The notes under the pieces: model-generated
Database searches by the model: none
Seen by the model: only the letters and a program-made list of their open reading frames with translations
Told to the model about the DNA's origin: nothing
NCBI GenBank assembly: GCA_050178385.1
Contig: JBFXGD010000127.1
Location: forward strand, 1-10,312
DNA from: Calditrichaceae bacterium
Lineage (GTDB): Bacteria; Calditrichota; Calditrichia; Calditrichales; JBFXGD01
DNA: 10,312 nt
Reading direction: 5' to 3'
In this document: positions 155-10,312 of the stretch, in pieces
How the letters are laid out: each line of letters starts with the position of its first letter
Position numbering within the stretch: position 1 is the stretch's first letter
Position numbers and translations under genes: made by a program

Positions 155-163
155 GATTCCAAA

Positions 164-214
164 CCCTTAACTCTTAACGCTCTTAAATTCTTACTTCTTA
201 CTTCCTACTTCCTT
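164..214. repeat. Degenerate heptamer tandem repeat tract
   Basis: Units cccttaa, ctcttaa, (cg)ctcttaa, attctta, cttctta, cttccta, cttcctt. Confidence 0.75.
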
Positions 215-215
215 T

Positions 216-308
216 GTCTGAACTGTGATTCGCCTGATTAAATGAAAACTCTGATTTCCAATTTCTATATTATGCGCATCATCTGATCATTTTGATCCGG
301 GTTCAGAC
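216..308. repeat. 93-bp imperfect palindromic element with perfect 8-bp termini (REP/MITE-like)
   Basis: GTCTGAAC (216-223) and GTTCAGAC (301-308) are perfect inverted termini. Internal arms pair in register: GATT/GATC, TGATT/GATCA, AAATGA/TCATCT. Confidence 0.7.
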
Positions 309-310
309 CG

Positions 311-366
311 TTTTTCATCTTTTCTCTTTTATCTTTTCTCTTTTATCTTTTATCTTTTTTCTTATC
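311..366. repeat. Pyrimidine-rich heptamer tandem repeat (TCTTTT[A/C]), about 8 units
   Basis: tttttca tcttttc tctttta tcttttc tctttta tctttta tcttttt tcttatc, contiguous with period 7. Confidence 0.85.
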
Positions 367-385
367 CTTCCCACTTCCTCCCGCC

Positions 386-424
386 ATTATCAAAATTCTG
401 ATACCCCATCAGAAATCTGATAAT
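386..424. promoter_or_regulatory. Putative upstream activator sequence (two tandem palindromic sites) for a sigma54 enhancer-binding protein
   Basis: ATCAAAATTCTGAT (389-402) and ATCAGAAATCTGAT (408-421) are similar 14-bp palindromes repeated at 19-bp spacing. The whole block is also an inverted repeat. It lies about 90-125 bp upstream of the -24 box. Confidence 0.65.
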
Positions 425-512
425 AAATAATCTCCATAACGAATATGTTTTTCATTATCTAAGTTTAATATTATCATGGTTATAATCCAGTAATAAAACC
501 CGATGGCTAATA

Positions 513-527
513 TGGCATGAAAATTGT
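513..527 (+). promoter_or_regulatory. Putative sigma54 (RpoN) -24/-12 promoter
   Basis: TGGCATG-AAAA-TTGT versus consensus TGGCACG-N4-TTGC, with exact spacing and GT in place of GC at -12. It is 41 bp upstream of the serpin ATG, and a GAFTGA activator is encoded in the same cluster. Confidence 0.7.
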
Positions 528-556
528 CGTATTTACAGACACATACATTTTTACCC

Positions 557-562
557 GGAGGT
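557..562 (+). promoter_or_regulatory. Shine-Dalgarno site of the serpin gene
   Basis: GGAGGT 6 nt upstream of ATG 569. Confidence 0.85.
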
Positions 563-568
563 ATCAAA

Positions 569-1804
569 ATGAAAATAAACAGTGTTTTAATAATTGTCAT
601 CGCCTGTTTATTCTTTGTATCTGCTTGCACGGATTTAAATCTGCCGGCAGATCCGCAGCCGGTCCGCGAACTCAACGATCATGAGAAGCAGCTCGCGGAA
701 GCGGATAATGTATTCAGCTTAAAATTATTCCGTGAAGTAAATAACGTAGAGAGTGAAAAAGATATTTTTATTTCACCCTTAAGTGTTTCATTCGCGCTGG
801 GTATGACCCTAAACGGAGCGGCGGAGGAAACATATCAGGCCATACGGCGGACACTGGAGTTTGATAATCTTGATCCTGATGAGATCAACGCCACCTATAA
901 GAGTCTGATTGAATATCTTACTAAAATCGATCCAAAAGTCGCGGTACAAATCGCTAATTCTATCTGGTACCGTGAGGGGTTTTCCGTTAAAGATGAATTT
1001 CTCAAAACAAATCAGTTCTACTTTAACGCGGAGATCGCCGCGCTTAACTTTGCGGATCCGGATGCGGTTGTCACAATCAATAATTGGGTCGATAATAATA
1101 CCAACGGGAAAATCACCAGGATAGTTGATACAATAAATGATGAAATCGTCATGTTGCTGATCAACGCCGTATATTTTAAAGGTGACTGGATGTATGAATT
1201 TGATCCGGAAGATACATTCGACGGCTCGTTTTATCTGCCCGATGGTTCTACCGAAATCTGCCGCATGATGCCTCAGGAGAATACGTTTGACTATTTCAGT
1301 AACGATTCGTTTCAGGCGGTTGACCTGCCGTATGGAAACAGCGCTTACAGTATGACCGTTTTTCTCCCGGCTGAGGAGGCCGATATAAATCAGATTATCA
1401 AACAAATGGACGGTACAGCATGGGAAAATTGGATAAACGGATTGTCACAAAAAAAGGGGCGTTTGGTTCTGCCGAAATTTAAAAAAGAATATGATATTAA
1501 TCTTAACGATATTCTAAAAACCCTGGGTATGGAAGTCGCGTTCAACGCGGGAGTAGCGGATTTCTCAAATATAAATGAAACGGCAGAGCTGTTCATCAGC
1601 AAAGTTACACATAAGACGTTTATCGAAGTGGATGAGAAAGGTACGGAAGCCGCCGCGGTAACTGCTGTTGAAGTCGGTGTGACGTCAGTTGATCCTGATT
1701 ATTTTGTCATGGAAGTAAACCGGCCGTTCTTTTTTGTAATCAGAGAGAAGCATTCCGGCACAATTCTCTTTATGGGTAAAATTCTTAATCCAAATAATAA
1801 ATAA
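569..1804 (+). CDS. Serpin (serine protease inhibitor, MEROPS I4), lipoprotein, 411 aa
   Basis: Motifs DIFISPLSVSFALGM, INNWVDNNTNGKI, LLINAVYFKGDW, LPKF, hinge EVDEKGTEAAAVT and C-terminal VNRPFFFVIREKHSGTILFMGKILNP. Start moved from 524 to ATG 569 based on the SD and the signal peptide MKINSVLIIVIACLFFVSA-C. Confidence 0.97.
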   Translation: MKINSVLIIVIACLFFVSACTDLNLPADPQPVRELNDHEKQLAEADNVFSLKLFREVNNVESEKDIFISPLSVSFALGMTLNGAAEETYQAIRRTLEFDNLDPDEINATYKSLIEYLTKIDPKVAVQIANSIWYREGFSVKDEFLKTNQFYFNAEIAALNFADPDAVVTINNWVDNNTNGKITRIVDTINDEIVMLLINAVYFKGDWMYEFDPEDTFDGSFYLPDGSTEICRMMPQENTFDYFSNDSFQAVDLPYGNSAYSMTVFLPAEEADINQIIKQMDGTAWENWINGLSQKKGRLVLPKFKKEYDINLNDILKTLGMEVAFNAGVADFSNINETAELFISKVTHKTFIEVDEKGTEAAAVTAVEVGVTSVDPDYFVMEVNRPFFFVIREKHSGTILFMGKILNPNNK

Positions 1805-1819
1805 TCTCTTGGGGTGGAT

Positions 1820-3625
1820 ATGAAAAAAACGATTTTATTCCTTTTGTTTCCCGCGGTTTTACTGGCTCAATACTGGGGTGAGCGCGCAAACGAAAAAAGT
1901 TTTGAACAATCGTCGCTTTACTTCAACAGCAACTATTTAAATACGTTTGGTATTTATCAGTTCAGGGATGTTACCGTGAGTTTGATTGATGATCCATTTC
2001 TGAATTTGCATCTTAATCCGGCCCTGTTCGAATCTGACAGTGTTTCCAATACCATGATGTACATGGATTTCCGGGGAGACCGGGAAGTTATAGAGGCAAC
2101 TCAATATTATCCGTATCCCATGTATTATGAGGATTACTATTACAGGAATTATATTATTGATCCGCGATGGTACACCACCACCCGATCGGAACCGGAGCCC
2201 GTGTTTTCTTTTGGTATAATCACCTTTCCGGTGGGAAAAAATTTGTACTTCGGCGGATCGTATCAATTAATCTATAAAAAAGAGCCGTACTATCAGGTGC
2301 CGACCTGGATCTATAATACAAGATACGGCTATGATGCCTTTGGTGAAAAAATCGATACCGGAACGGATGTACCGGTGATTGACAGGTATGCCGGAGAAGA
2401 TGAGATGCTGACCACCGCTCATTTGCTATCGGGGAGCTTGGGATACCGACTGTCGGACGCGCTAAGACTGGGTGTCAGTGTGAATGCCGTCTCACATGAC
2501 CGGAATGGTGATTATTTAAATATCAATTCGTATGAATATACAAGTTCCGGCGGGAGCGATTGGTTTAACTCATACTCAACAGGACGTGATCAGGAGTATC
2601 GCCATCTCGATTTCAGCGGCGGTTTGGTTTACCAGGTTGCTCCGGCGGTGAATATTGGGATAAAGGTGGGAATTTTGGACGGGAATGTTAAGCAAAGTCT
2701 GAACCGGTCAGACTCTTCACATTATTATTATGACAATACCGATGAAAACAGAACTGATTTTTCAAACAGCTTCAGCCGAGGAATTACCAGTCAGAGTTGG
2801 GAACATGACGGACAGAGCAAATATGGAAATATAAGTCTGAACTATGAAATGACTCCCGGAAATCATCTGAAAATATATTATCAGTACGAAAACAAAGATA
2901 TTGACCTGACAAATCGTTCGGTCATCAATGATACTTCCTTTTATAACAGTTCCTACTCCTGGGATACGACGAGAGTTACCAATATCTACTGGTCATCCTT
3001 AAAGGATATCCGCAACGCGACCGGCAAAAATGATATCACAACAAACCGGGGAATGTTTTCATTCAGCCTGAAGGCAAGCACAAAGAGTACTGTTTCATTC
3101 GGGTTTTATTTTTCAAAGACAGAATCAAGGACAAACACTGTTGAACCGGTTTCTGTGAGCAGAGACTCCGAAAGCAAATATTATTACACCTATCATGAAT
3201 TATTCACTCCCGATACATCACTTTATAATTACAACGTGCAGGAAGATAAACGGCTGACATGGAATTACGAATCCAATCTTAAATCCTTGCAGATACCGGT
3301 GATTCTCAATTATATGATCGCGGAAAACTGGAATTTAATGCTTGGGGTAAACCGGATTTTAAACAGCTGGGAGATAAAAGAAGAAACTATTGCCTATTAT
3401 AATCTTCGGAAGAAGAATGAGAACGGAATCCTTGAAGAAGAATCCGATTTTATCGAACGGTACAGGGAACCGACAAAAACTTATACGGAGAATGAAACGG
3501 ATTTTATGGCCGGATTGAATGTAAAAGTTTCGCCCAGGTTTACAATAAATATTCTTGTGGACCCGGAATCGAAACCGGATTGGCGCATTGCACAATGGTG
3601 GCTGAGTTTTAGCGCAAAATTATAG
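1820..3625 (+). CDS. Exported protein, probable outer-membrane beta-barrel (possibly FadL/PorV-like), about 601 aa
   Basis: Sec signal MKKTILFLLFPAVLLA-Q; N-terminal DDPFLNLHLNPA motif; many amphipathic strands (LYFGGSYQL, LSGSLGYRL, FSGGLVYQV, FMAGLNVKV); ends WWLSFSAKL. Alternative start GTG 1814. Confidence 0.7.
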   Translation: MKKTILFLLFPAVLLAQYWGERANEKSFEQSSLYFNSNYLNTFGIYQFRDVTVSLIDDPFLNLHLNPALFESDSVSNTMMYMDFRGDREVIEATQYYPYPMYYEDYYYRNYIIDPRWYTTTRSEPEPVFSFGIITFPVGKNLYFGGSYQLIYKKEPYYQVPTWIYNTRYGYDAFGEKIDTGTDVPVIDRYAGEDEMLTTAHLLSGSLGYRLSDALRLGVSVNAVSHDRNGDYLNINSYEYTSSGGSDWFNSYSTGRDQEYRHLDFSGGLVYQVAPAVNIGIKVGILDGNVKQSLNRSDSSHYYYDNTDENRTDFSNSFSRGITSQSWEHDGQSKYGNISLNYEMTPGNHLKIYYQYENKDIDLTNRSVINDTSFYNSSYSWDTTRVTNIYWSSLKDIRNATGKNDITTNRGMFSFSLKASTKSTVSFGFYFSKTESRTNTVEPVSVSRDSESKYYYTYHELFTPDTSLYNYNVQEDKRLTWNYESNLKSLQIPVILNYMIAENWNLMLGVNRILNSWEIKEETIAYYNLRKKNENGILEEESDFIERYREPTKTYTENETDFMAGLNVKVSPRFTINILVDPESKPDWRIAQWWLSFSAKL

Positions 3626-3658
3626 CTTATGTTTTTAAATATTCCGGCGGGAACAAAC

Positions 3659-4156
3659 ATGAAGAAACTAATATACACACTATTAATAATCACCCTGACA
3701 ACAGGATGTGAAGATCCGGTTTCACCGGCTCTGGATTACTCGCAGATGGAAATACATTATCAGAAGTCCGGTGGATGGATACCCGTAACATCTCTGTCGG
3801 TGAACGGCGCGGACGCTATGATAACCGGTGTTGAAATCAGTCAACAGGGGCAGTCATCGGATACGCTTTGTGAAGCTGCAAACCAGACGGAATTAAACGT
3901 ATTGGCGGAGATTTTCTATGGTTTTGATCAATACAATGATTATTATGAACCGGTTGATTTTCATACGGACGCGAATTATCATCAGACGGTATTGATTTAT
4001 AAGGGAAAAAGTGATACAGTAACGGTGTATGATCCTGACAGAGTGAATCTGCCGTCGGGTTTGAAGCGTAGCATAGATGAAATGGAAAAAATGTCAGATA
4101 GGTTGTTCAAACTGGTTATTCAGAGAGATCAACTTAAGCGGGAGACAGAAAGTTGA
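3659..4156 (+). CDS. Lipoprotein with a possible emfourin-like (protealysin/M4 inhibitor) domain
   Basis: Signal II MKKLIYTLLIITLTTG-C (start 3659 preferred over 3629). Pattern IHYQKSGGW...D.NY....IYKGKSDTVTVYD....LPSGLKRSIDEM resembles the emfourin family as I recall it; not verified. Confidence 0.6.
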   Translation: MKKLIYTLLIITLTTGCEDPVSPALDYSQMEIHYQKSGGWIPVTSLSVNGADAMITGVEISQQGQSSDTLCEAANQTELNVLAEIFYGFDQYNDYYEPVDFHTDANYHQTVLIYKGKSDTVTVYDPDRVNLPSGLKRSIDEMEKMSDRLFKLVIQRDQLKRETES

Positions 4157-4584
4157 AAAAACTGTCGTTTATTCCGGTTTTGCTCACGGTCATTATTTTT
4201 CTCTGGAATTGCGGTGATGATGATCTGACCGGTACAGGGAAATTGCTGAAAATTGCGGGTGATACGATTGAAGTCGCTTATGGTGATACGGTATTTGCCC
4301 CGGGTGGCTATGACCGCATCACGTTTGATTCCCTGCTCCAGGAAAGCCGCTGTCCTACAGGAGTTGTTTGTTTTTGGGAAGGAAACGGTTCCATTCAATT
4401 ATCCCTGCTCACTGAAACAAAGAAAATCTCATTCATATTAAATACGCATCCGGACTTCACTAACGATACCACTGTGGTTGGTTATTATTTTTCATTAGTT
4501 GAATTAAATCCGTATCCACATATTGACAGCACCTATACGGAAAATGATTACCGGGCGGTTATACTTGTAAGAACTGAGCTTTGA
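4153..4584 (+). CDS. Hypothetical lipoprotein with (D/E)SRCPxxxxCxWxG motif
   Basis: TTG start overlapping the upstream stop (TTGA), SD GGAG at 4141-4144, signal II MKKLSFIPVLLTVIIFLWN-C, motifs ESRCPTGVVCFWEG and LVELNPYP. Confidence 0.8.
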   Translation: MKKLSFIPVLLTVIIFLWNCGDDDLTGTGKLLKIAGDTIEVAYGDTVFAPGGYDRITFDSLLQESRCPTGVVCFWEGNGSIQLSLLTETKKISFILNTHPDFTNDTTVVGYYFSLVELNPYPHIDSTYTENDYRAVILVRTEL

Positions 4585-4621
4585 TAAGTTTGTCGTTATG
4601 AATTGTATTAGGAGAGAAGAG

Positions 4622-5101
4622 ATGAAAACACTATTTTCTATTCTTACTTTAATAATGATTTTTTTGACTGCATGCAGGGAAGATGATCATGTCGCGGATT
4701 ATTCGCTACGCGCGGTATCCGGTCCGGATGTTATAATATTCGGATATATTGACAGTGTGCAGATATACGAAGATCCCGTTTCTCTCGAGGATGTCAGCAT
4801 GAGCGGTGATACTCTGAAGTTAGAAATCTCTTATTCCGGTGGATGCAAGGAGCATGAATTTTTACTTTACGTGTCAAAAGATTTTGCGGAATCCTATCCG
4901 GTGCAGGCATCGGTTTATCTTTCTCATAATTCGAACGATGACCGATGTAAAGCATTGATCAGGAAAGATCTGTGTTTCAATCTATCCTTATTAAAAGAAG
5001 AATACTGGAAATTATATAATGATAACGGACCGATTGATTTGAACCTGTTCGCGCCGGGGACAACAGACGCGCATATGCCCCTAATCAGATATTCATTTTA
5101 A
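4622..5101 (+). CDS. Hypothetical lipoprotein, possibly NigD C-terminal-like beta-sandwich
   Basis: SD AGGAG at 4610-4614, ATG 4622, signal II MKTLFSILTLIMIFLTA-C. Motifs YSGGCKEHEFLL, ESYPVQ, LSHNSNDDRCKAL and FNLSLLK. Confidence 0.75.
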   Translation: MKTLFSILTLIMIFLTACREDDHVADYSLRAVSGPDVIIFGYIDSVQIYEDPVSLEDVSMSGDTLKLEISYSGGCKEHEFLLYVSKDFAESYPVQASVYLSHNSNDDRCKALIRKDLCFNLSLLKEEYWKLYNDNGPIDLNLFAPGTTDAHMPLIRYSF

Positions 5102-5194
5102 GTATGGTGATTTATATTTTTCTTTCGGGAGTACATCTGAAAAGGTATATTGAGTTAAATTTAATGCAGGAAGTATCACTAACCAGATAAAGCA

Positions 5195-5584
5195 ATGGTT
5201 ACAAATATGACTCTTTCATTCATGATACTTTTATTCGCGGGCGGCTGTATTTCCGGTGGACAGGATGATAATTATATTGTCAGTCAGGTATATTCGATCG
5301 ATTCGGTAAAGATTATCAAATCATCCGGACTTGAATATTCGGCGAAAATAAAGGCCGCGGTGCCGAATCCATGTCATGAGTATTCCCACATCGATCTGGT
5401 ACGGGAAGGGAACGATATTCAGGTGCTCGTATATTCGAAGATCAGAAAAGATGTGACGTGCATTCAGGTTCTGGGTTCGATAGAAGCCGAAATATCGTTC
5501 AAAGTTGAATCGGCCGGAGACTATAGGATCCATTTCAAGGGAAGAAGCCGCGTGTTAGATGTTGAGGCGGAAATCAAAGATTAA
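5195..5584 (+). CDS. Small hypothetical lipoprotein, Ig-like fold predicted (PrcB-C/BsuPI-like CxQV motif)
   Basis: Hydrophobic N-terminus ending FAGG-C; PNPC...GNDIQV...TCIQVL...AGDYRIHF pattern with two mature Cys residues. Confidence 0.7.
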   Translation: MVTNMTLSFMILLFAGGCISGGQDDNYIVSQVYSIDSVKIIKSSGLEYSAKIKAAVPNPCHEYSHIDLVREGNDIQVLVYSKIRKDVTCIQVLGSIEAEISFKVESAGDYRIHFKGRSRVLDVEAEIKD

Positions 5585-5683
5585 CCCGAGGTGAAAGTCA
5601 GAATCAATTCAGGTATCCCAACAGGAATATAAACCTGATTTTGCGGTGCGCCCGGGGACTTAAAGGAATATGATCGAGATCGA

Positions 5684-7075
5684 ATGAACCGGATTTTCAA
5701 TATATCATTCAAAACAAGAATCATTCTAATATTCAGCCTGATTACGGTTTTGCTAGTCGGTTTAATGGCCAGGGTCAGCTATGTTTTTGTCCGTGAAATT
5801 TACCAGCGGCAGCTTGAAGAACAGGTATTATTGCTGAACAAGCTTACGGCGGATGACCTTGATCAAAAATATCTGGATTATATCGAACCCGGAACTGATA
5901 ATTTTGCCTACGAATTTTATAAAAATATACTGACGGAAAACGTTAAACGCATGCGGATCAGTAACGCGTTTTTATTTGACGGAAAAATGCGGATTCTGAT
6001 CAGTGTGAATCAGGAAATTTCCGATACAAGACTGCTTCTGAGCCGGAGTGAGATCAGCGAATTGACTTCGGGGGAGGGCGCTATATCCACCCCCTTCAAG
6101 TCACAGGACGGCCAATGGTATCTTTGGGGATTTTACCGGTTAAATGAGCATTATTATCTGGGGATTCAGGAAAGCGCCGCGCGTCTTGCAAAGCTGGATG
6201 ACTTATCCCTCATGTTTCTGATCATCGGTTTGGCCGGAATCGTCGTCGTTATCGGAGGTGCCTGGTTTGGCGCGGGCGCTATTGTCAGTCCAATTAATAA
6301 ACTGGCTAAATTCAGCTCGGACATCGGGAGCGGGCTTTTTAATACAAAAGTCCCGGAAAATATAACAGGTGAATTGATAATATTAAGAGACGCTCTGGTT
6401 AAAATGAAAGACGATCTGGCGCAGATGCAAACGGAAAAAGAGAACATTCTTGCTGAAATCGCCCACGAGATCAGAAACCCGCTCGGGGGGATAGAGCTTC
6501 TTACCGGTCTCGTCAGGGAAGAAACCGACGTATCGAGTAAAAATAACGTCTATCTGAATAAAATCCTTGAAGAAGTCCAGTCCCTGAAATCCCAGATCAC
6601 CGCGTATCTTGATTACAGCCGTCCCCTGATACCTGAGCCTCAGATGATAAATCCGGATCAGTTATGCAGTGAATTGAACGGGCTGTTTCTGAATCAAATG
6701 GCAGGTAAAAAAATAGGATTTGAATACCGGAACCATCTGGAGACCATCAGGTTTGATAAACAGCACCTCAGGCAGATACTGATCAATCTCGTGGCGAATA
6801 GTATTGAGGCGATCGGTCAGGAAGGGACAGTTCTCATAGAGTCTTACCAAAAAAATGATCATTCATATATTACGGTGAGCGACAACGGACATGGAATACA
6901 GGAAGCAGATTTGGTAAATCTGTTTAAACCGTTTTTTACGACAAGAAAAAAAGGCACCGGTCTTGGATTGTCGGTTTGTAAAAAACTTTGCCGTGAAAAC
7001 AATGCTGAAATTTCTGTTCTGAAGAGTGCCGGTAAAGGCTGCACATTTCAAATTTTAGTAAAAAATGAAATATAA
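5684..7075 (+). CDS. Membrane sensor histidine kinase (2 TM, periplasmic sensor, HAMP, HisKA, HATPase)
   Basis: TM1 IILIFSLITVLLVGLMA, TM2 LMFLIIGLAGIVVVIGGAWFGA, H-box AEIAHEIRNPLGGI, N-box NLVANS, G1 DNGHG, F-box LFKPFFTT, G2 GTGLGL. Confidence 0.97.
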   Translation: MNRIFNISFKTRIILIFSLITVLLVGLMARVSYVFVREIYQRQLEEQVLLLNKLTADDLDQKYLDYIEPGTDNFAYEFYKNILTENVKRMRISNAFLFDGKMRILISVNQEISDTRLLLSRSEISELTSGEGAISTPFKSQDGQWYLWGFYRLNEHYYLGIQESAARLAKLDDLSLMFLIIGLAGIVVVIGGAWFGAGAIVSPINKLAKFSSDIGSGLFNTKVPENITGELIILRDALVKMKDDLAQMQTEKENILAEIAHEIRNPLGGIELLTGLVREETDVSSKNNVYLNKILEEVQSLKSQITAYLDYSRPLIPEPQMINPDQLCSELNGLFLNQMAGKKIGFEYRNHLETIRFDKQHLRQILINLVANSIEAIGQEGTVLIESYQKNDHSYITVSDNGHGIQEADLVNLFKPFFTTRKKGTGLGLSVCKKLCRENNAEISVLKSAGKGCTFQILVKNEI

Positions 7076-8462
7076 AATATCGGATAAGATAATGGATACC
7101 GATCAGATTATTATCGTTGAGGATAACGACTCAATGAGAATGGGGATGGCGGAAAGTTTACGGCGTGAAGGGTATACCGTATTTGAGTTTACTGAGGGTT
7201 CTCACGCTTTGGAACATATGCAAACCAATCCGGTGTCACTGGTCATAAGCGATTTGAAGATGGAGCCCATGGACGGTCTCGCTGTATTGAAGAAAGTCAG
7301 GGAAAAACATCCCGACGCGGAGGTTTTAATCGTGTCGGCGTATGGAACTGTGAATGTAGCTGTCGATGCCATGCGCATGGGCGCCGTAGATTTTATGACT
7401 AAACCGTTTTCCAATGACGAGTTACGGATTCGGGTTAAAAACATCATGCAGAAAGTGGAAAAAGACCGCTTAATCAACAGGCTGCAGGATGTGAATGAGT
7501 ACCTTGCGGATGAAATTTCATCAGAATACGAACAAATGATCGGAAACTCGCCTCCCATGCTGGAAATTTTCAGATTGATTGATAAGATAGCCCGGGAGGA
7601 AAGTGTCGTATTGATTGAAGGTGAGAGCGGCACAGGAAAGGAATTGGTGGCGCGGGCGATACACAGGAAAAGTAAACGGGCTGATAAATCATTTGTCAGA
7701 GTAAATTGTGGAGCGTTGAACGATAATCTGCTCGAGAGTGAGTTGTTCGGACACGAAAAAGGCGCGTTCACCGGAGCGGTTCGCCGGAAAAAAGGTAGAT
7801 TTGAACTGGCGGATGGCGGGACGCTTTTTTTGGATGAGATTGGTGATATTTCTCCGAATATGCAGGTTAAATTACTGCGCGCGATTCAGGAGAAGGAATT
7901 TGAAAGGGTTGGCGGTGAAAAAACATTAAAAGTCAATGTCCGGATCATTGCCGCTACAAATAAAAATCTTCAGAAACTAATCGTGGACGATAAATTCAGA
8001 GAAGATCTTTTCTATCGTTTGAGTGTGATTCCGGTAAAGCTTCCCGCGCTAAGACAGCGTAAAAGTGATATCCCGCTCCTGGTCGAATTTTTCTTAGAAA
8101 AACAGGGTAAAAAGGGTGCGCAGAAGAAAACGTTTTCAACGCGTTCACTATCCTTGCTGCAGGATTATTCATGGCCGGGCAATATCCGCGAACTGGAAAA
8201 TCTGATCGAACGGCTCTGTGTGATTTCACCGGAATCTGGGATCGGAGCGGAGACAGTGGCGGCATACACTTCGGGTTTTAACGGTTCAGCTCTGAATCAG
8301 GATAATCTGCCTTTGGAAGAAGCGCTTTATTCATTTGAGAAGAATATGATTCTGCAAGCGATGAAAAAAGCGGATGGTGTAAAAAACCAGGCTGCAAAAC
8401 TCCTGGGAATTAAGACAAGTACGCTTTATTATAAACTTGAAAAATTTGGAATGATCGAATGA
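7065..8462 (+). CDS. Sigma54-dependent response regulator, NtrC/AtoC/ZraR family (REC, AAA+, Fis HTH)
   Basis: Receiver motifs IIVEDN, ISDLKM, SAYG, KPF; Walker A GESGTGKE; intact GAFTGA; Walker B FLDEI; DLFYRL; WPGNIREL; HTH AAKLLGIKTSTLYYKL. Alternative start ATG 7092. Confidence 0.98.
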   Translation: MKYKISDKIMDTDQIIIVEDNDSMRMGMAESLRREGYTVFEFTEGSHALEHMQTNPVSLVISDLKMEPMDGLAVLKKVREKHPDAEVLIVSAYGTVNVAVDAMRMGAVDFMTKPFSNDELRIRVKNIMQKVEKDRLINRLQDVNEYLADEISSEYEQMIGNSPPMLEIFRLIDKIAREESVVLIEGESGTGKELVARAIHRKSKRADKSFVRVNCGALNDNLLESELFGHEKGAFTGAVRRKKGRFELADGGTLFLDEIGDISPNMQVKLLRAIQEKEFERVGGEKTLKVNVRIIAATNKNLQKLIVDDKFREDLFYRLSVIPVKLPALRQRKSDIPLLVEFFLEKQGKKGAQKKTFSTRSLSLLQDYSWPGNIRELENLIERLCVISPESGIGAETVAAYTSGFNGSALNQDNLPLEEALYSFEKNMILQAMKKADGVKNQAAKLLGIKTSTLYYKLEKFGMIE

Positions 8463-9412
8463 GAGTAATAATTCTCGTCATATCACTTTTTTTCTCATCA
8501 CTGTCGGCGCAATTGTTATCCGAAACCGAACAGAAAATGATGGCTCTTGAGAAAAAAGAGCAGCTGCAGAATGTGAAAATTGATTCCTTAAAGAAGAATC
8601 TTGAAACCGCGCTATACAGGATAGATCAAAAAAAATCGGCAAAGGGCGCTGATTCCAAACAAATTGCCGCCATGATGGCCGACGCGTTTGATATCTCAAA
8701 AAAGATCGAAACGGAAGAAGCAGTTTTGAAAAGTATTGTAAATAATCTTCAAACGGTAAAAATAACCATCCATAAAATCTGTACTCAAAAGATAGATTCT
8801 TTGCAGAAAAACCTGAAGAAAACAAATAGTGATTTTGAAAAGAAAAAAATAGAGCAGGAGATTTTTAGGTTTGCCGAAAAAAGAATGCTGGCCTTGCCGG
8901 TTTTTAATGATCTAAAATTCGATCCACGGAAAATAAGAGACATTGACCTGAAAAATGCTTCCGAGGGAATTGAACAGTCCATATTCAAAGATTATCTTAC
9001 TCAGGCGCTGGCTGAAATCGATTCTCACCTGATTGATATCCGGAAAAGGCATGATGAAATCGATGAAATGAAGAGACTTGAGGCAAAGGCAGAGATTTTT
9101 CTGGCTGACGCGCAAGACAGCAGAATTTTTGATTTTTATGCTCAATCCCAGGATGATATATCAACCAGACCGGCTGAAACAACAGATTACCAAACCGACT
9201 ATAATAAAATCGGGCAGATAGACGCGTTCCGGACAATGATCCTGCAGCTTTATGAAGTCGGTCCTGAGATAGGGATCAGCTCTCATAACAAGTTTATATT
9301 TCCAGATGAAAAAACGCTGAGCAGGGATCAGTATCTTGAAGTAATGAACGCGACCCAAAAGTATCTTGAACTTTACCGGAAGCTGATATTGAAAAAATTG
9401 GAACGCCGATAG
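8459..9412 (+). CDS. Exported, predominantly alpha-helical/coiled-coil hypothetical protein
   Basis: ATGA overlap with the regulator stop codon; Sec signal MRVIILVISLFFSSLSA-Q; K/E/Q/L-rich helical segments. Confidence 0.8.
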   Translation: MRVIILVISLFFSSLSAQLLSETEQKMMALEKKEQLQNVKIDSLKKNLETALYRIDQKKSAKGADSKQIAAMMADAFDISKKIETEEAVLKSIVNNLQTVKITIHKICTQKIDSLQKNLKKTNSDFEKKKIEQEIFRFAEKRMLALPVFNDLKFDPRKIRDIDLKNASEGIEQSIFKDYLTQALAEIDSHLIDIRKRHDEIDEMKRLEAKAEIFLADAQDSRIFDFYAQSQDDISTRPAETTDYQTDYNKIGQIDAFRTMILQLYEVGPEIGISSHNKFIFPDEKTLSRDQYLEVMNATQKYLELYRKLILKKLERR

Positions 9413-9443
9413 TGACTGAGGCCGTCCTGAATGAGATTATCCG

Positions 9444-10312
9444 ATGAAAATTCAAATTATCCTCCTTCTGCTTTTCTTATCTGTCGCGTTTATGGAGGCG
9501 GCTGAAAAAATACAGTTTCAACTAGGAGCGGAAGCCGGGGGGTATCGCTCGGAGTACGTGGACGGTAAATTTGTGTCCAGAATTTTTGGTCGTTTTGATT
9601 ATGAGAATCAGTTCAGGAATAATTATGTGCGGTTAAAAGCGCGCGTATTTCCCGAAAGGTACGGTTTTGATAACAGTGTAAACGCGCTGAAATTTTCAGG
9701 AGATCTTACTTTTGGCAGATCTCATCAGGCATTTGACTGGCAGGTACGTCTCTACGATAAGCGCTATTTCTATTTCAGCGATGTTATTGAGGATATTTCT
9801 TTCGATGTGTTTCTTCTTGGCGGGCAGATTTCCAAATTCATAAGTCCGTTGACTATTTTAAGATTCGGAATTGACTACACCTACCGTGACTTGTCGGAAC
9901 AACCCAGGAATCGCCTGGACAGTTTTACGGGTACGCTGGCCCTGTCTCACCGAATTCAGCGGAACAGTATGATCAGTATTGAGATTTATACCGAAAACTA
10001 TGAAATACGATTCGAAAGCACCGGACCGGAACCTGCCCGAAATACGGGATGGAGAATAGGGCCCGGGTTCAGCTATCACCATAAATCCGTTTATTACTTT
10101 AATTTATCCTATCAGTTAATTCTTGAATCGTCTGAATTGTCCGAAGAATTTTCCCGTGAGCATCAGATAAAAATCTTGTGGGGTCGATTTTTGAGTAAAA
10201 AATGGTCTCTGTTCTTTTATGGAGATTACAGATATTATAGTGATAAAGGAAAAGATATACCCGCGGAACTCTCATATACTCCGGTAAATAACGAAAACTG
10301 GTATTATATCAA
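9444..10312 (+). CDS. Probable outer-membrane beta-barrel protein (3'-truncated, absent from the ORF track)
   Basis: Manual translation from ATG 9444 is open for 289 codons to the window end: signal MKIQIILLLLFLSVAFMEA, then amphipathic strands (IQFQLGAEAGGY, LRFGIDYTYRD, WRIGPGFSYHH, WSLFFYGDYRY). Confidence 0.85.
   Translation, partial: MKIQIILLLLFLSVAFMEAAEKIQFQLGAEAGGYRSEYVDGKFVSRIFGRFDYENQFRNNYVRLKARVFPERYGFDNSVNALKFSGDLTFGRSHQAFDWQVRLYDKRYFYFSDVIEDISFDVFLLGGQISKFISPLTILRFGIDYTYRDLSEQPRNRLDSFTGTLALSHRIQRNSMISIEIYTENYEIRFESTGPEPARNTGWRIGPGFSYHHKSVYYFNLSYQLILESSELSEEFSREHQIKILWGRFLSKKWSLFFYGDYRYYSDKGKDIPAELSYTPVNNENWYYI

Follow-up and report, generated by a model that had tools for sequence, protein, structure and literature searches.

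A predicted sigma-54-controlled envelope module carrying a lipoprotein serpin in Calditrichota and neighboring phyla

We analyzed a stretch of DNA of 10,312 bp from a landfill bacterium of the family Calditrichaceae (hereafter, the window), which is a complete contig (C127) of a 3.89-Mb metagenome-assembled genome that is 94% complete. The window carries ten + strand open reading frames (ORFs) in a row, named here g1 to g10, among which are the gene of a lipoprotein serpin and a pair of genes encoding a sensor kinase and an NtrC-type activator. We propose that these genes probably constitute a sigma-54 autoregulated envelope module that carries a serpin and inducibly remodels or protects the cell surface. 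Based on sequence comparisons, the window is a member of an envelope module that is conserved in Calditrichota and in neighboring phyla of the Fibrobacteres–Chlorobi–Bacteroidetes (FCB) group and that is so far undescribed. A first-pass annotation, made from the sequence alone, had described ten co-oriented genes with short gaps or overlaps, eight exported products, a kinase/NtrC-type pair and a -24/-12 box with tandem palindromes upstream, and this layout was confirmed. The spacing between genes ranges from -11 to +99 nt, the start of the serpin gene was corrected to position 569 in place of a TTG at 524, and the last gene, g10, runs past the end of the contig, with about 43 more codons on contig C181. 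Pfam and NCBIfam give names to the serpin, the kinase and the activator only. Eight of the ten products present an export signal, as read from the translations: five lipoboxes (VSAC in g1, TTGC in g3, LWNC in g4, LTAC in g5 and AGGC in g6) and three leaders of signal-peptidase-I type (g2, g9 and g10).

We compared the window to related loci using the 603-amino acid barrel protein encoded by g2 as synteny anchor, because a query of the genome contigs with the serpin returned a single locus, from the same genus. The anchor was found in 37 of the 86 genomes of the phylum, representing five of its eight families; 20 regions were retrieved from the anchor-bearing genomes, and the comparisons were conducted over 21 genome loci and 41 metagenome loci. 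The core of the locus is syntenic across these five families at 18–64% protein identity, and this synteny was also observed in metagenomes. Its fixed parts are a tall barrel of about 600 amino acids followed by a block composed of the kinase, the activator, g9 and g10. The barrel is separated from the kinase by a variable cargo of zero to six small exported proteins, most of them lipoproteins, and cargo is sometimes found ahead of the barrel as well. The conserved core of the module is therefore the envelope barrel with the kinase block and not a set of inhibitors. The closest public relative is another Calditrichaceae genome, whose serpin is 83% identical and in which the ten genes are found in identical order.

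The elements predicted to control the operon are the following:

388..403, + strand: putative upstream activator site 1, TATCAAAATTCTGATA, a 16-bp palindrome read in the sequence and conserved in tandem.
407..422, + strand: putative upstream activator site 2, CATCAGAAATCTGATA, a 16-bp palindrome located 19 bp, center to center, from site 1.
513..528, + strand: predicted sigma-54 type -24/-12 promoter, TGGCATGAAAATTGTC, based on its motif and its conservation in related loci.
5684..7075, + strand: g7, a sensor histidine kinase (Pfam HisKA, 1.1e-11; HATPase_c, 9.4e-23).
7065..8462, + strand: g8, an NtrC-type sigma-54 activator (Sigma54_activat, PF00158, 1.2e-73; Response_reg, 1.2e-28; HTH_8, 3.3e-14).

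The -12 element of TGGCATGAAAATTGTC reads TTGT, where the textbook form is TTGC. The motif TGGCAY-N5-TTG was found 30–105 nt before the first gene of the operon in 14 related genome loci; in two further genome loci, the ORF of this gene is over-extended and the motif falls within it or directly ahead of it. Upstream of the promoter, the related loci present a pair of palindromes with the consensus TATCAGAwwTCTGATA, 19–20 bp apart. Exactly one tandem site was detected on the operon strand in 19 of the 21 genome loci (19 hits in 305 kb, using a fixed pattern), and each of these 19 sites is followed by GG-N10-TTG within the next 300 nt. The same combination was found upstream of the equivalent operon in 29 of the 41 metagenome loci (32 tandem hits in 409 kb). 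The independent samples for the tandem site are the metagenome set and the scan of the window's own genome only; across the 3.89 Mb of the latter, a loose tandem pattern occurs at five places and the promoter follows at the window's site only.

The proteins needed to read such a promoter are also encoded in the genome. A single match to rpoN was detected (4.1e-58), together with about 25 full-scoring activator genes among 29 matches. The activator g8, whose start codon is likely at 7092, is composed of a receiver domain, an AAA+ domain and a Fis-type helix-turn-helix, and the GAFTGA motif is present in its translation; its orthologues in related loci are 55–64% identical. The kinase g7 has two membrane segments, and its periplasmic domain, about 140 amino acids long, matches no known family. 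Orthologues of g7 (35–48% identity) were found in 16 of the 21 genome loci. Inside the cluster, we detected no intergenic terminator-like site on the + strand, and neither internal terminators nor an excess of sigma-70 promoters above shuffled expectation. From these sequence features, we predict with high confidence that the operon depends on sigma-54, is activated by the two-component system that it encodes and, in this genome, is the sole operon of the regulon. The sigma-54-controlled operon with its own two-component system put forward by the first-pass annotation is thereby borne out by a promoter and palindromes that recur in different families of the phylum and in metagenomes, by rpoN and by the GAFTGA motif. 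A role in anti-phage defense was also considered and rejected: PADLOC returned only generic matches, to the AAA+ domain and the receiver domain of g8, among which those of RtcR/PspF type scored best.

Some related loci show other arrangements of these regulatory elements. Three paralogous tall-barrel loci (L045, L046 and L059, in genomes G067, G068 and G073) have no adjacent kinase and activator genes and keep the tandem palindromes and the sigma-54 promoter, which indicates that, outside of the window's genome, the activator probably also acts in trans and that, in these three genomes, it probably controls several loci. The cargo of these loci includes a 1582-amino acid TPR protein, a homologue of Rce1-like membrane proteases, and BNR and adhesin-like proteins with tails of the type IX secretion system (T9SS). 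In three other loci, a second TGGCAY-N5-TTG box was found right after the second barrel gene (L041 at 13397, L044 at 11072 and L043 at 10987, in oriented coordinates), where it precedes the gene of an exported coiled-coil protein of 497–552 amino acids. One family of the phylum may thus have a neighboring sigma-54 unit.

The first gene of the operon encodes the serpin:

569..1804, + strand: g1, a miropin-like lipoprotein serpin of inhibitory type (Pfam Serpin, 1.2e-116; lipobox VSAC).

The serpin covers positions 2–370 of the 370 positions of the profile PF00079 (MEROPS I4), and among solved structures it is closest to miropin of Tannerella forsythia (PDB 5ncs, 2.3e-87). Its reactive-center hinge, EKGTEAAAVT (EKGTEAAAVTAVEVGVT-S when aligned to miropin), presents small residues as in the inhibitory class (P15 Gly, P14 Thr and Ala-rich P12–P9). 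The lipoprotein serpin of the first-pass annotation accordingly stands, with a full domain, a hinge of inhibitory type and a VSAC lipobox. The hinge GTEAAA is kept in all 15 locus-linked serpins that were aligned. The canonical P1 residue, Thr in g1, is nearly invariant among these 15 sequences, and P2 (Val in g1) varies widely: Val, Phe, Leu, Thr, Arg, Ile, Ala, Asn, Glu or Tyr. For the three loci with both paired serpins in the alignment, one serpin presents Arg at P2 and its partner an aliphatic residue or Thr. At the sequence level, a conserved P1 and hinge with a variable P2 fits working inhibitors with differing targets. The available text of a study of Tannerella forsythia describes miropin as a surface lipoprotein with several reactive sites, including the P2-P1 bond (Lys368-Thr) (10.1101/2025.09.05.674453). 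Miropin resembles g1 in being a lipoprotein with the hinge GTEAAAVTAVE and an x-Thr-Ser sequence at the reactive site, but its P2 is Lys whereas that of g1 is Val. The text consulted on miropin mentions neither a sigma-54 operon with a two-component system of its own nor a dedicated barrel.

The serpin is the sole serpin of its own genome and represents the commonest cargo of the module: it was found in 12 of the 21 genome loci and 13 of the 41 metagenome loci. Of the 15 genome loci with a two-component system, 11 carry it. It always adjoins the barrel, and some loci carry two copies; in the closed genome G007, the module likewise has two serpins. The linkage of the serpin to this locus, on which the first-pass annotation relied, is thus conserved in other genomes but is not obligatory. 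The same annotation had taken the absence of a protease gene from the window as favoring defense against foreign proteases. However, the genome encodes at least eight subtilases outside of the window, so that the lack of a protease within the window is no argument for foreign targets. We consider it at least as likely that the serpin guards against the bacterium's own secreted proteases as against foreign ones.

The other members of the conserved core are three exported proteins of the envelope:

1814..3625, + strand: g2 (OMP603), a tall outer-membrane beta-barrel of an undescribed family, 603 amino acids (AlphaFold2 model; predicted local distance difference test, pLDDT, 87.3; predicted template modeling score, pTM, 0.85).
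8459..9412, + strand: g9, an exported, mostly helical (coiled-coil) protein of an undescribed family, whose start overlaps the end of g8.
9444..10312 (continues on C181), + strand: g10, a second exported protein and putative outer-membrane barrel, based on its alternating sequence pattern.

The start codon of g2 is likely the ATG at 1820. The predicted model of g2 contains about 16 strands (from the DSSP string), ten of which are 24–37 residues long, with short helices at residues 26–67 before the first strand; given the length of these ten strands, the barrel should rise well above the membrane. The N-terminal segment is the best-conserved part of the family and contains the motif NPA: N68 and P69 are invariant and A70 is conserved in at least 90% of sequences, both in a set of 21 and in a set of 71. 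NPA is presented as the conserved hatch motif of FadL in the part of PMC8407342 available to us. We found at least 198 clusters of g2 relatives, all hypothetical, in Calditrichota, Ignavibacteria, Zixibacteria and others, with no recurring Pfam label. The protein itself matches no Pfam family at cut-off, and a scan of 71 relatives with E up to 1 listed 11 families, with weak matches to NtrZ and to generic OMP_b-brl only. Profiles of g2 and g10 gave nothing meaningful against the sequences of solved structures, and Foldseek returned template modeling (TM) scores of at most 0.30 for g2.

The FadL-like motif raises the possibility that the locus serves the capture and uptake of substrates, in the manner of the utilization loci of Bacteroidota: a FadL-like barrel would import a hydrophobic or other nutrient, the variable lipoproteins would bind it at the surface, the two-component system would detect it, and the serpin would only shield this machinery from proteases secreted by the cell itself. 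Chains of the FadL family give the longest structural alignments of g2 (333–350 residues, extending into the N-terminal segment), a barrel accompanied by changing lipoproteins and by its own regulator agrees with such a logic, AtoS/AtoC are the best-scoring models for g7 and g8 (below cut-off), and the genome encodes many subtilases. However, the Z-scores of the FadL-family chains in the VIA comparison do not stand out: a FadL homologue (3dwo, 16.4), FadL (1t16, 13.8) and TodX (3brz, 12.9) are found alongside PgaA (18.0), PelB (17.1) and porins. The barrel has no match to Toluene_X and about 16 strands rather than 14, the likeness to AtoS/AtoC is generic to the whole class of regulators, and neither an inner-membrane transporter nor a catabolic enzyme is conserved in the locus. 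We regard a dedicated uptake function as unlikely. Judged from its predicted model, g2 represents a new family of barrels with a hatch motif similar to that of FadL, rather than a FadL member.

A different role for such a barrel is known from Bacteroidota, where, according to the available text of PMC12578637, the FadL homologues BamG (with BamH) and PorV hold surface lipoproteins or secretion cargo by their outer loops. This precedent leads us to infer that g2 may dock the lipoproteins encoded with it. Both BamG and PorV share with g2 the N-terminal segment with NPA and gave long alignments (9hjm_F and 9hj3_F, Z of about 15; PorV, 6h3i_F, Z of 14.3). In contrast to them, g2 is about 200 residues longer, presents about 16 very long strands and has no Toluene_X match, and their Z-scores are tied with those of unrelated barrels. 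The leaders of g2 (window positions 1865–1873) and g9 (8507–8515) both end with Ala-Gln, and this Gln is invariant in the alignments (Q19 in g2 and Q18 in g9). A Gln-first rule, with formation of pyroglutamate, is known for exported proteins of Bacteroidota, and the Ala-Gln leaders of g2 and g9 are reminiscent of it.

The position of g9 and g10 after the regulators is nearly constant. Directly after the activator, g9 was found in 14 of 15 genome loci (L048 is the exception), and both g9 and g10 follow the activator in all nine metagenome loci with room for them; in four more, the activator is the last listed ORF. This fixed place after the regulators suggests that g9 and g10 might be part of the sensing apparatus. 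The ESM Atlas model of g9 is helical (pTM 0.61), its nearest clusters in the Atlas are all hypothetical and commonest in Ignavibacteriota and Fidelibacterota, and no family of Pfam or NCBIfam matches it. On its sequence pattern, g10 is taken to be a barrel; none of 15 g10 relatives presents a Pfam family. The Slam/DUF560 surface-lipoprotein translocon was considered for g9 and g10 and rejected at the sequence level, as none of the 15 relatives of g10 matches DUF560 with E up to 1.

These features also bear on a possible regulon of envelope stress or outer-membrane biogenesis similar to ZraPSR or Cpx, in which g9 would act as a chaperone or modulator, g2 and g10 would be replacement outer-membrane proteins and the serpin would be one stress cargo. 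In its favor, g7 and g8 show similarity to ZraS and ZraR (1.5e-35 and 1.7e-119, respectively; both below cut-off), g9 is an exported helical protein encoded directly after the activator, and this genome has a single operon in the regulon. However, g9 matches no ZraP, CpxP or Spy family in Pfam or NCBIfam. Moreover, nothing identifies the signal, and the cargo is too variable for housekeeping repair. Such a regulon appears improbable.

We then considered the cargo across loci. An all-against-all comparison of 99 candidate cargo ORFs, several of which are likely spurious, yielded many small clusters and singletons. We scanned 44 plausible cargo proteins, most of which have no Pfam match; the exceptions are META, immunoglobulin (Ig)-like, T9SS-tailed and DUF4249 proteins and an inserted IS1595 transposase. 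A further 22 cargo proteins included T9SS-tailed adhesin-like proteins, a small barrel, DUF6174 and a carbohydrate-binding module (CBM). No protease was detected among these 66 proteins. A Lon-like protein is encoded in locus L093, past an unrelated gene, and is cytoplasmic in type. The families of the window's small lipoproteins recur across the 62 related loci: g3 in four, g4 in nine, g5 in four and g6 in six. Some loci present additional genes within the module: genes of META-domain lipoproteins lie between the kinase and the activator in L050 (8572–9000; 4.4e-12) and L051 (4424–4993; 9.8e-15), the cargo of L041 is separated from the kinase by an IS1595-type transposase (3e-30; 7894–8574), and a mobile or foreign ORF of 154 amino acids lies between the kinase and the activator in L042 (7533–7997). 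The activator ORF of L042 starts about 60 residues late, and its receiver domain may be damaged.

In the window, the cargo located between the barrel and the kinase consists of four small lipoproteins:

3659..4156, + strand: g3, a lipoprotein with a Mago-nashi-like alpha/beta fold and a remote relative of DUF6438 (AlphaFold2 model, pLDDT 93.6).
4153..4584, + strand: g4, a lipoprotein of a small undescribed family (motif DSRCPxGxxCxWEGN ... LNTHP ... PYPHIDSTY).
4622..5101, + strand: g5, a lipoprotein with a beta-sandwich similar to the C-terminal part of NigD (NigD_C, 7.2e-4, below cut-off).
5195..5584, + strand: g6, a small lipoprotein with no match to Pfam or NCBIfam in the libraries scanned.

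The first-pass annotation had interpreted the locus as an inducible shield against foreign proteases made of several unrelated inhibitors: the serpin, an emfourin-like protein and lipoproteins with disulfide-constrained loops. Its best candidate for an emfourin (MEROPS I104) is g3. The model of g3, which includes a long C-terminal helix, aligns best to Mago nashi (1hl6_B; Z of 11.6, root-mean-square deviation, rmsd, of 3.7 over 120 residues with VIA; Foldseek top match 1p27_A, E of 2.6e-5 and TM of 0.51). The alignment to emfourin (6zyg) has a Z of 4.3 (rmsd of 4.2 over 84 residues) and ranks fifth among 48,161 chains, tied with unrelated Ig-like chains. We identified 62 representative relatives of g3: among the 53 that were scanned, 22 match DUF6438 (best 2.2e-7) and seven weakly match Emfourin (best E of 0.0098), and g3 itself matches neither the DUF6438 model nor the Emfourin model (PF20242) with E up to 1. 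With E up to 0.01, the Emfourin model had no match in the six-frame translation of the window's own genome and identified one gene in the 86 genomes of the phylum. Using hhalign, the family profile of g3 matched this one canonical Emfourin-family protein of the phylum with a probability of 0.2%. The identification of g3 as an emfourin was therefore rejected, given the failed Pfam model, the profile comparison and the Mago Z-score against that of emfourin; any kinship between g3 and emfourins is at most very remote. Emfourin genes are typically paired with the gene of an M4 (protealysin-like) peptidase. In the window, none of the ten proteins matches a peptidase family of Pfam, M4 included. Emfourin (M4in, PDB 6zyg) and g3 are both small alpha/beta proteins with a weak resemblance of fold, but g3 differs in being a lipoprotein with a long C-terminal helix in a window without an M4 peptidase gene.

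The other three lipoproteins did not lead to inhibitor families either. The 14 relatives of g4 share an invariant pair of Cys and none has a Pfam domain; g4 matches Inhibitor_I36 very weakly (E of 0.071), its profile has no match among solved structures with E up to 10, and the protein atlas offers unnamed Bacteroidota clusters only. The match of g5 to NigD_C reaches 20.0 bits for a cut-off of 22.6 and concerns the C-terminal sandwich part only, and its match to NigD1/NigD2 of NCBIfam (NF051862; 4e-9) reaches 36.6 bits for a cut-off of 60. Two clusters of relatives were found for g6, with the precomputed label PF27154 attached, a label whose name was not resolved.

These results leave part of the proposed shield in place. 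The serpin is real and of inhibitory type. The weak Emfourin matches among the relatives of g3, the rank of 6zyg, and the Cys pair of g4 with its very weak Inhibitor_I36 match could point to further inhibitors, and Tannerella forsythia combines a lipoprotein serpin with small inhibitor families, the potempins, according to the available portion of 10.1101/2025.09.05.674453. On the other hand, the several unrelated inhibitors did not materialize: no small lipoprotein matches an inhibitor family at cut-off, g3 fails the Emfourin model and folds like Mago nashi, g4 has no relative among solved structures, g4 and g6 belong to no named family, and in other loci these lipoproteins are replaced by unrelated proteins. 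With eight subtilase genes in the same genome, foreign targets are not needed. We consider a multi-inhibitor shield against foreign proteases to be improbable. No evidence of protease inhibition by g3 to g6 was found, and although some of them may still be inhibitors, these proteins should not be given that name.

Our preferred reading, a sigma-54 autoregulated module that carries a serpin and acts on the cell surface, would operate as follows. The kinase g7 would sense a periplasmic or surface signal and phosphorylate g8, which would bind the two palindromes at 388–422 and open the -24/-12 promoter at 513–528. All ten genes would then be transcribed, including g7 and g8, resulting in self-regulation. 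Probably exposed as a lipoprotein in the vicinity of the tall barrel, the serpin would inactivate serine proteases by a suicide-substrate mechanism. By analogy with Bifidobacterium breve, the inducing signal may be proteolytic damage. The surface exposure of the lipoproteins, their contact with the barrel and the signaling role of g9 and g10 are likewise conjectural steps of this scheme. Two or more acidic residues directly follow the lipidated Cys of g3, g4 and g5, and a paper on the β-barrel assembly machinery (BAM) applies, in its available text, a rule of acidic residues to the export of surface lipoproteins in Bacteroidota (PMC12578637). A more ambitious version of this scheme, which we hold to be speculative and unlikely, is that the g7–g10 block forms a relay from the outer to the inner membrane, in which g10 would report surface damage or a ligand to the kinase via a periplasm-spanning g9, and that g2 is a new docking platform for exchangeable surface lipoproteins, serpins first. 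Together, these would form a sigma-54 gated cassette of surface armor in Calditrichota, Ignavibacteriota, Fidelibacterota and Zixibacteria.

Several observations weigh against our preferred reading or against the evidence used for it. The serpin is missing from four of the 15 genome loci with the two-component system and from 11 of the 16 metagenome loci with a kinase (two of them with little, if anything, ahead of the barrel). These loci have the core without a serpin, implying that the core has a function independent of the serpin. No recurring protease, transporter or enzyme that would point to a substrate was found in the cargo. The signal of acidic residues is weaker in the serpin and in g6, and the rule is known for Bacteroidota. 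Regarding the barrel, its VIA matches are generic barrels (Z of 13 to 18.6), Toluene_X (FadL) was not detected in the 71 relatives with E up to 1, and the predicted model has about 16 strands compared with 14 in FadL channels. Since the genome loci served both to derive the tandem pattern and to count it, that count is partly circular, and some metagenome contigs duplicate genome contigs (e.g., L067 and L054, whose contigs are equal in length). Finally, no RNA run is listed among the public runs that match the window.

The surroundings of the operon were also inspected. Its upstream boundary is formed by a repeat that lies outside of the operon:

159..386, no strand assigned: dispersed intergenic repeat, with about 100 partial copies at 70–96% identity on many contigs of the same genome.

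This repeat is pyrimidine-rich, and its copies are often clustered and close to contig ends. It may be an element similar to repetitive extragenic palindromic (REP) sequences or to miniature inverted-repeat transposable elements (MITE) and the cause of assembly breaks. At the other end, positions 9967–10312 of the window overlap positions 6572–6917 of contig C181 of the same assembly (L009; G000:C181) over 346 bp at 99% identity, and the join is inside g10. Past g10, C181 encodes on the same strand as the window, once oriented, a von Willebrand factor A (vWA)-domain-like protein (390 amino acids) and a MoxR/AAA-like protein (503 amino acids), named from their translations and not from a family scan. 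In its relative L010, a matching ORF is found after its own g10, and the remaining related loci have different genes there. Four public sequencing runs, all of DNA, match all or part of the window: two landfill metagenomes and two runs with a small share. The near-identical DNA in the two landfill runs comes from two studies (word shares of 0.95 and 0.37).

In the open-access literature, we found no description of a serpin associated with sigma-54 and a lipoprotein, of a Calditrichaeota serpin or of a two-component operon of a bacterial serpin of this kind. Lipoprotein serpins (miropin), serpin operons under a neighboring protease-inducible two-component system and autoregulated operons of NtrC type are all already known. 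What is new, as far as that literature goes, is the conserved association of a sigma-54 circuit with an exchangeable cargo of lipoproteins and with three envelope families that lack annotation. Serpins are rare in bacteria, and their regulation and display are known for very few. This locus offers a precise regulatory code, composed of two palindromes with a sigma-54 promoter, one kinase/activator pair and an apparently single-operon regulon, and it defines three widespread unannotated envelope families that always travel with this code, namely those of the tall NPA barrel g2, of the coiled-coil protein g9 and of the putative barrel g10. The module is carried by environmental bacteria of the FCB group, which play an important part in protein degradation in sediments and waste. 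Should the tall barrel hold lipoproteins, the module would extend the theme of barrels with surface lipoproteins of Bacteroidota. As a caution, small lipoproteins encoded nearby should not be named protease inhibitors by context alone.

The module can finally be compared to two known systems of regulation. In Bifidobacterium breve UCC2003, a two-component system located beside the serpin gene induces the serpin and itself, and the inducer is protease treatment, as stated in the available text of PMC8012564 (citing Alvarez-Martin 2012). The two loci are alike in that the serpin gene adjoins a two-component system, but B. breve is a monoderm actinobacterium, and its operon has neither outer-membrane components nor a variable lipoprotein cargo. 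To our knowledge, its serpin regulator is not an NtrC-type sigma-54 activator. If the inducer of our module were proteolytic damage, the module would represent a diderm counterpart of the Bifidobacterium circuit. The systems of ZraPSR type resemble the window in their regulatory logic, with a periplasm-sensing kinase and a sigma-54 activator, control of their own operon and tandem palindromic sites upstream. Their output genes, in contrast, are unrelated to those of the window, and the sensor domain of g7 belongs to none of the known families.

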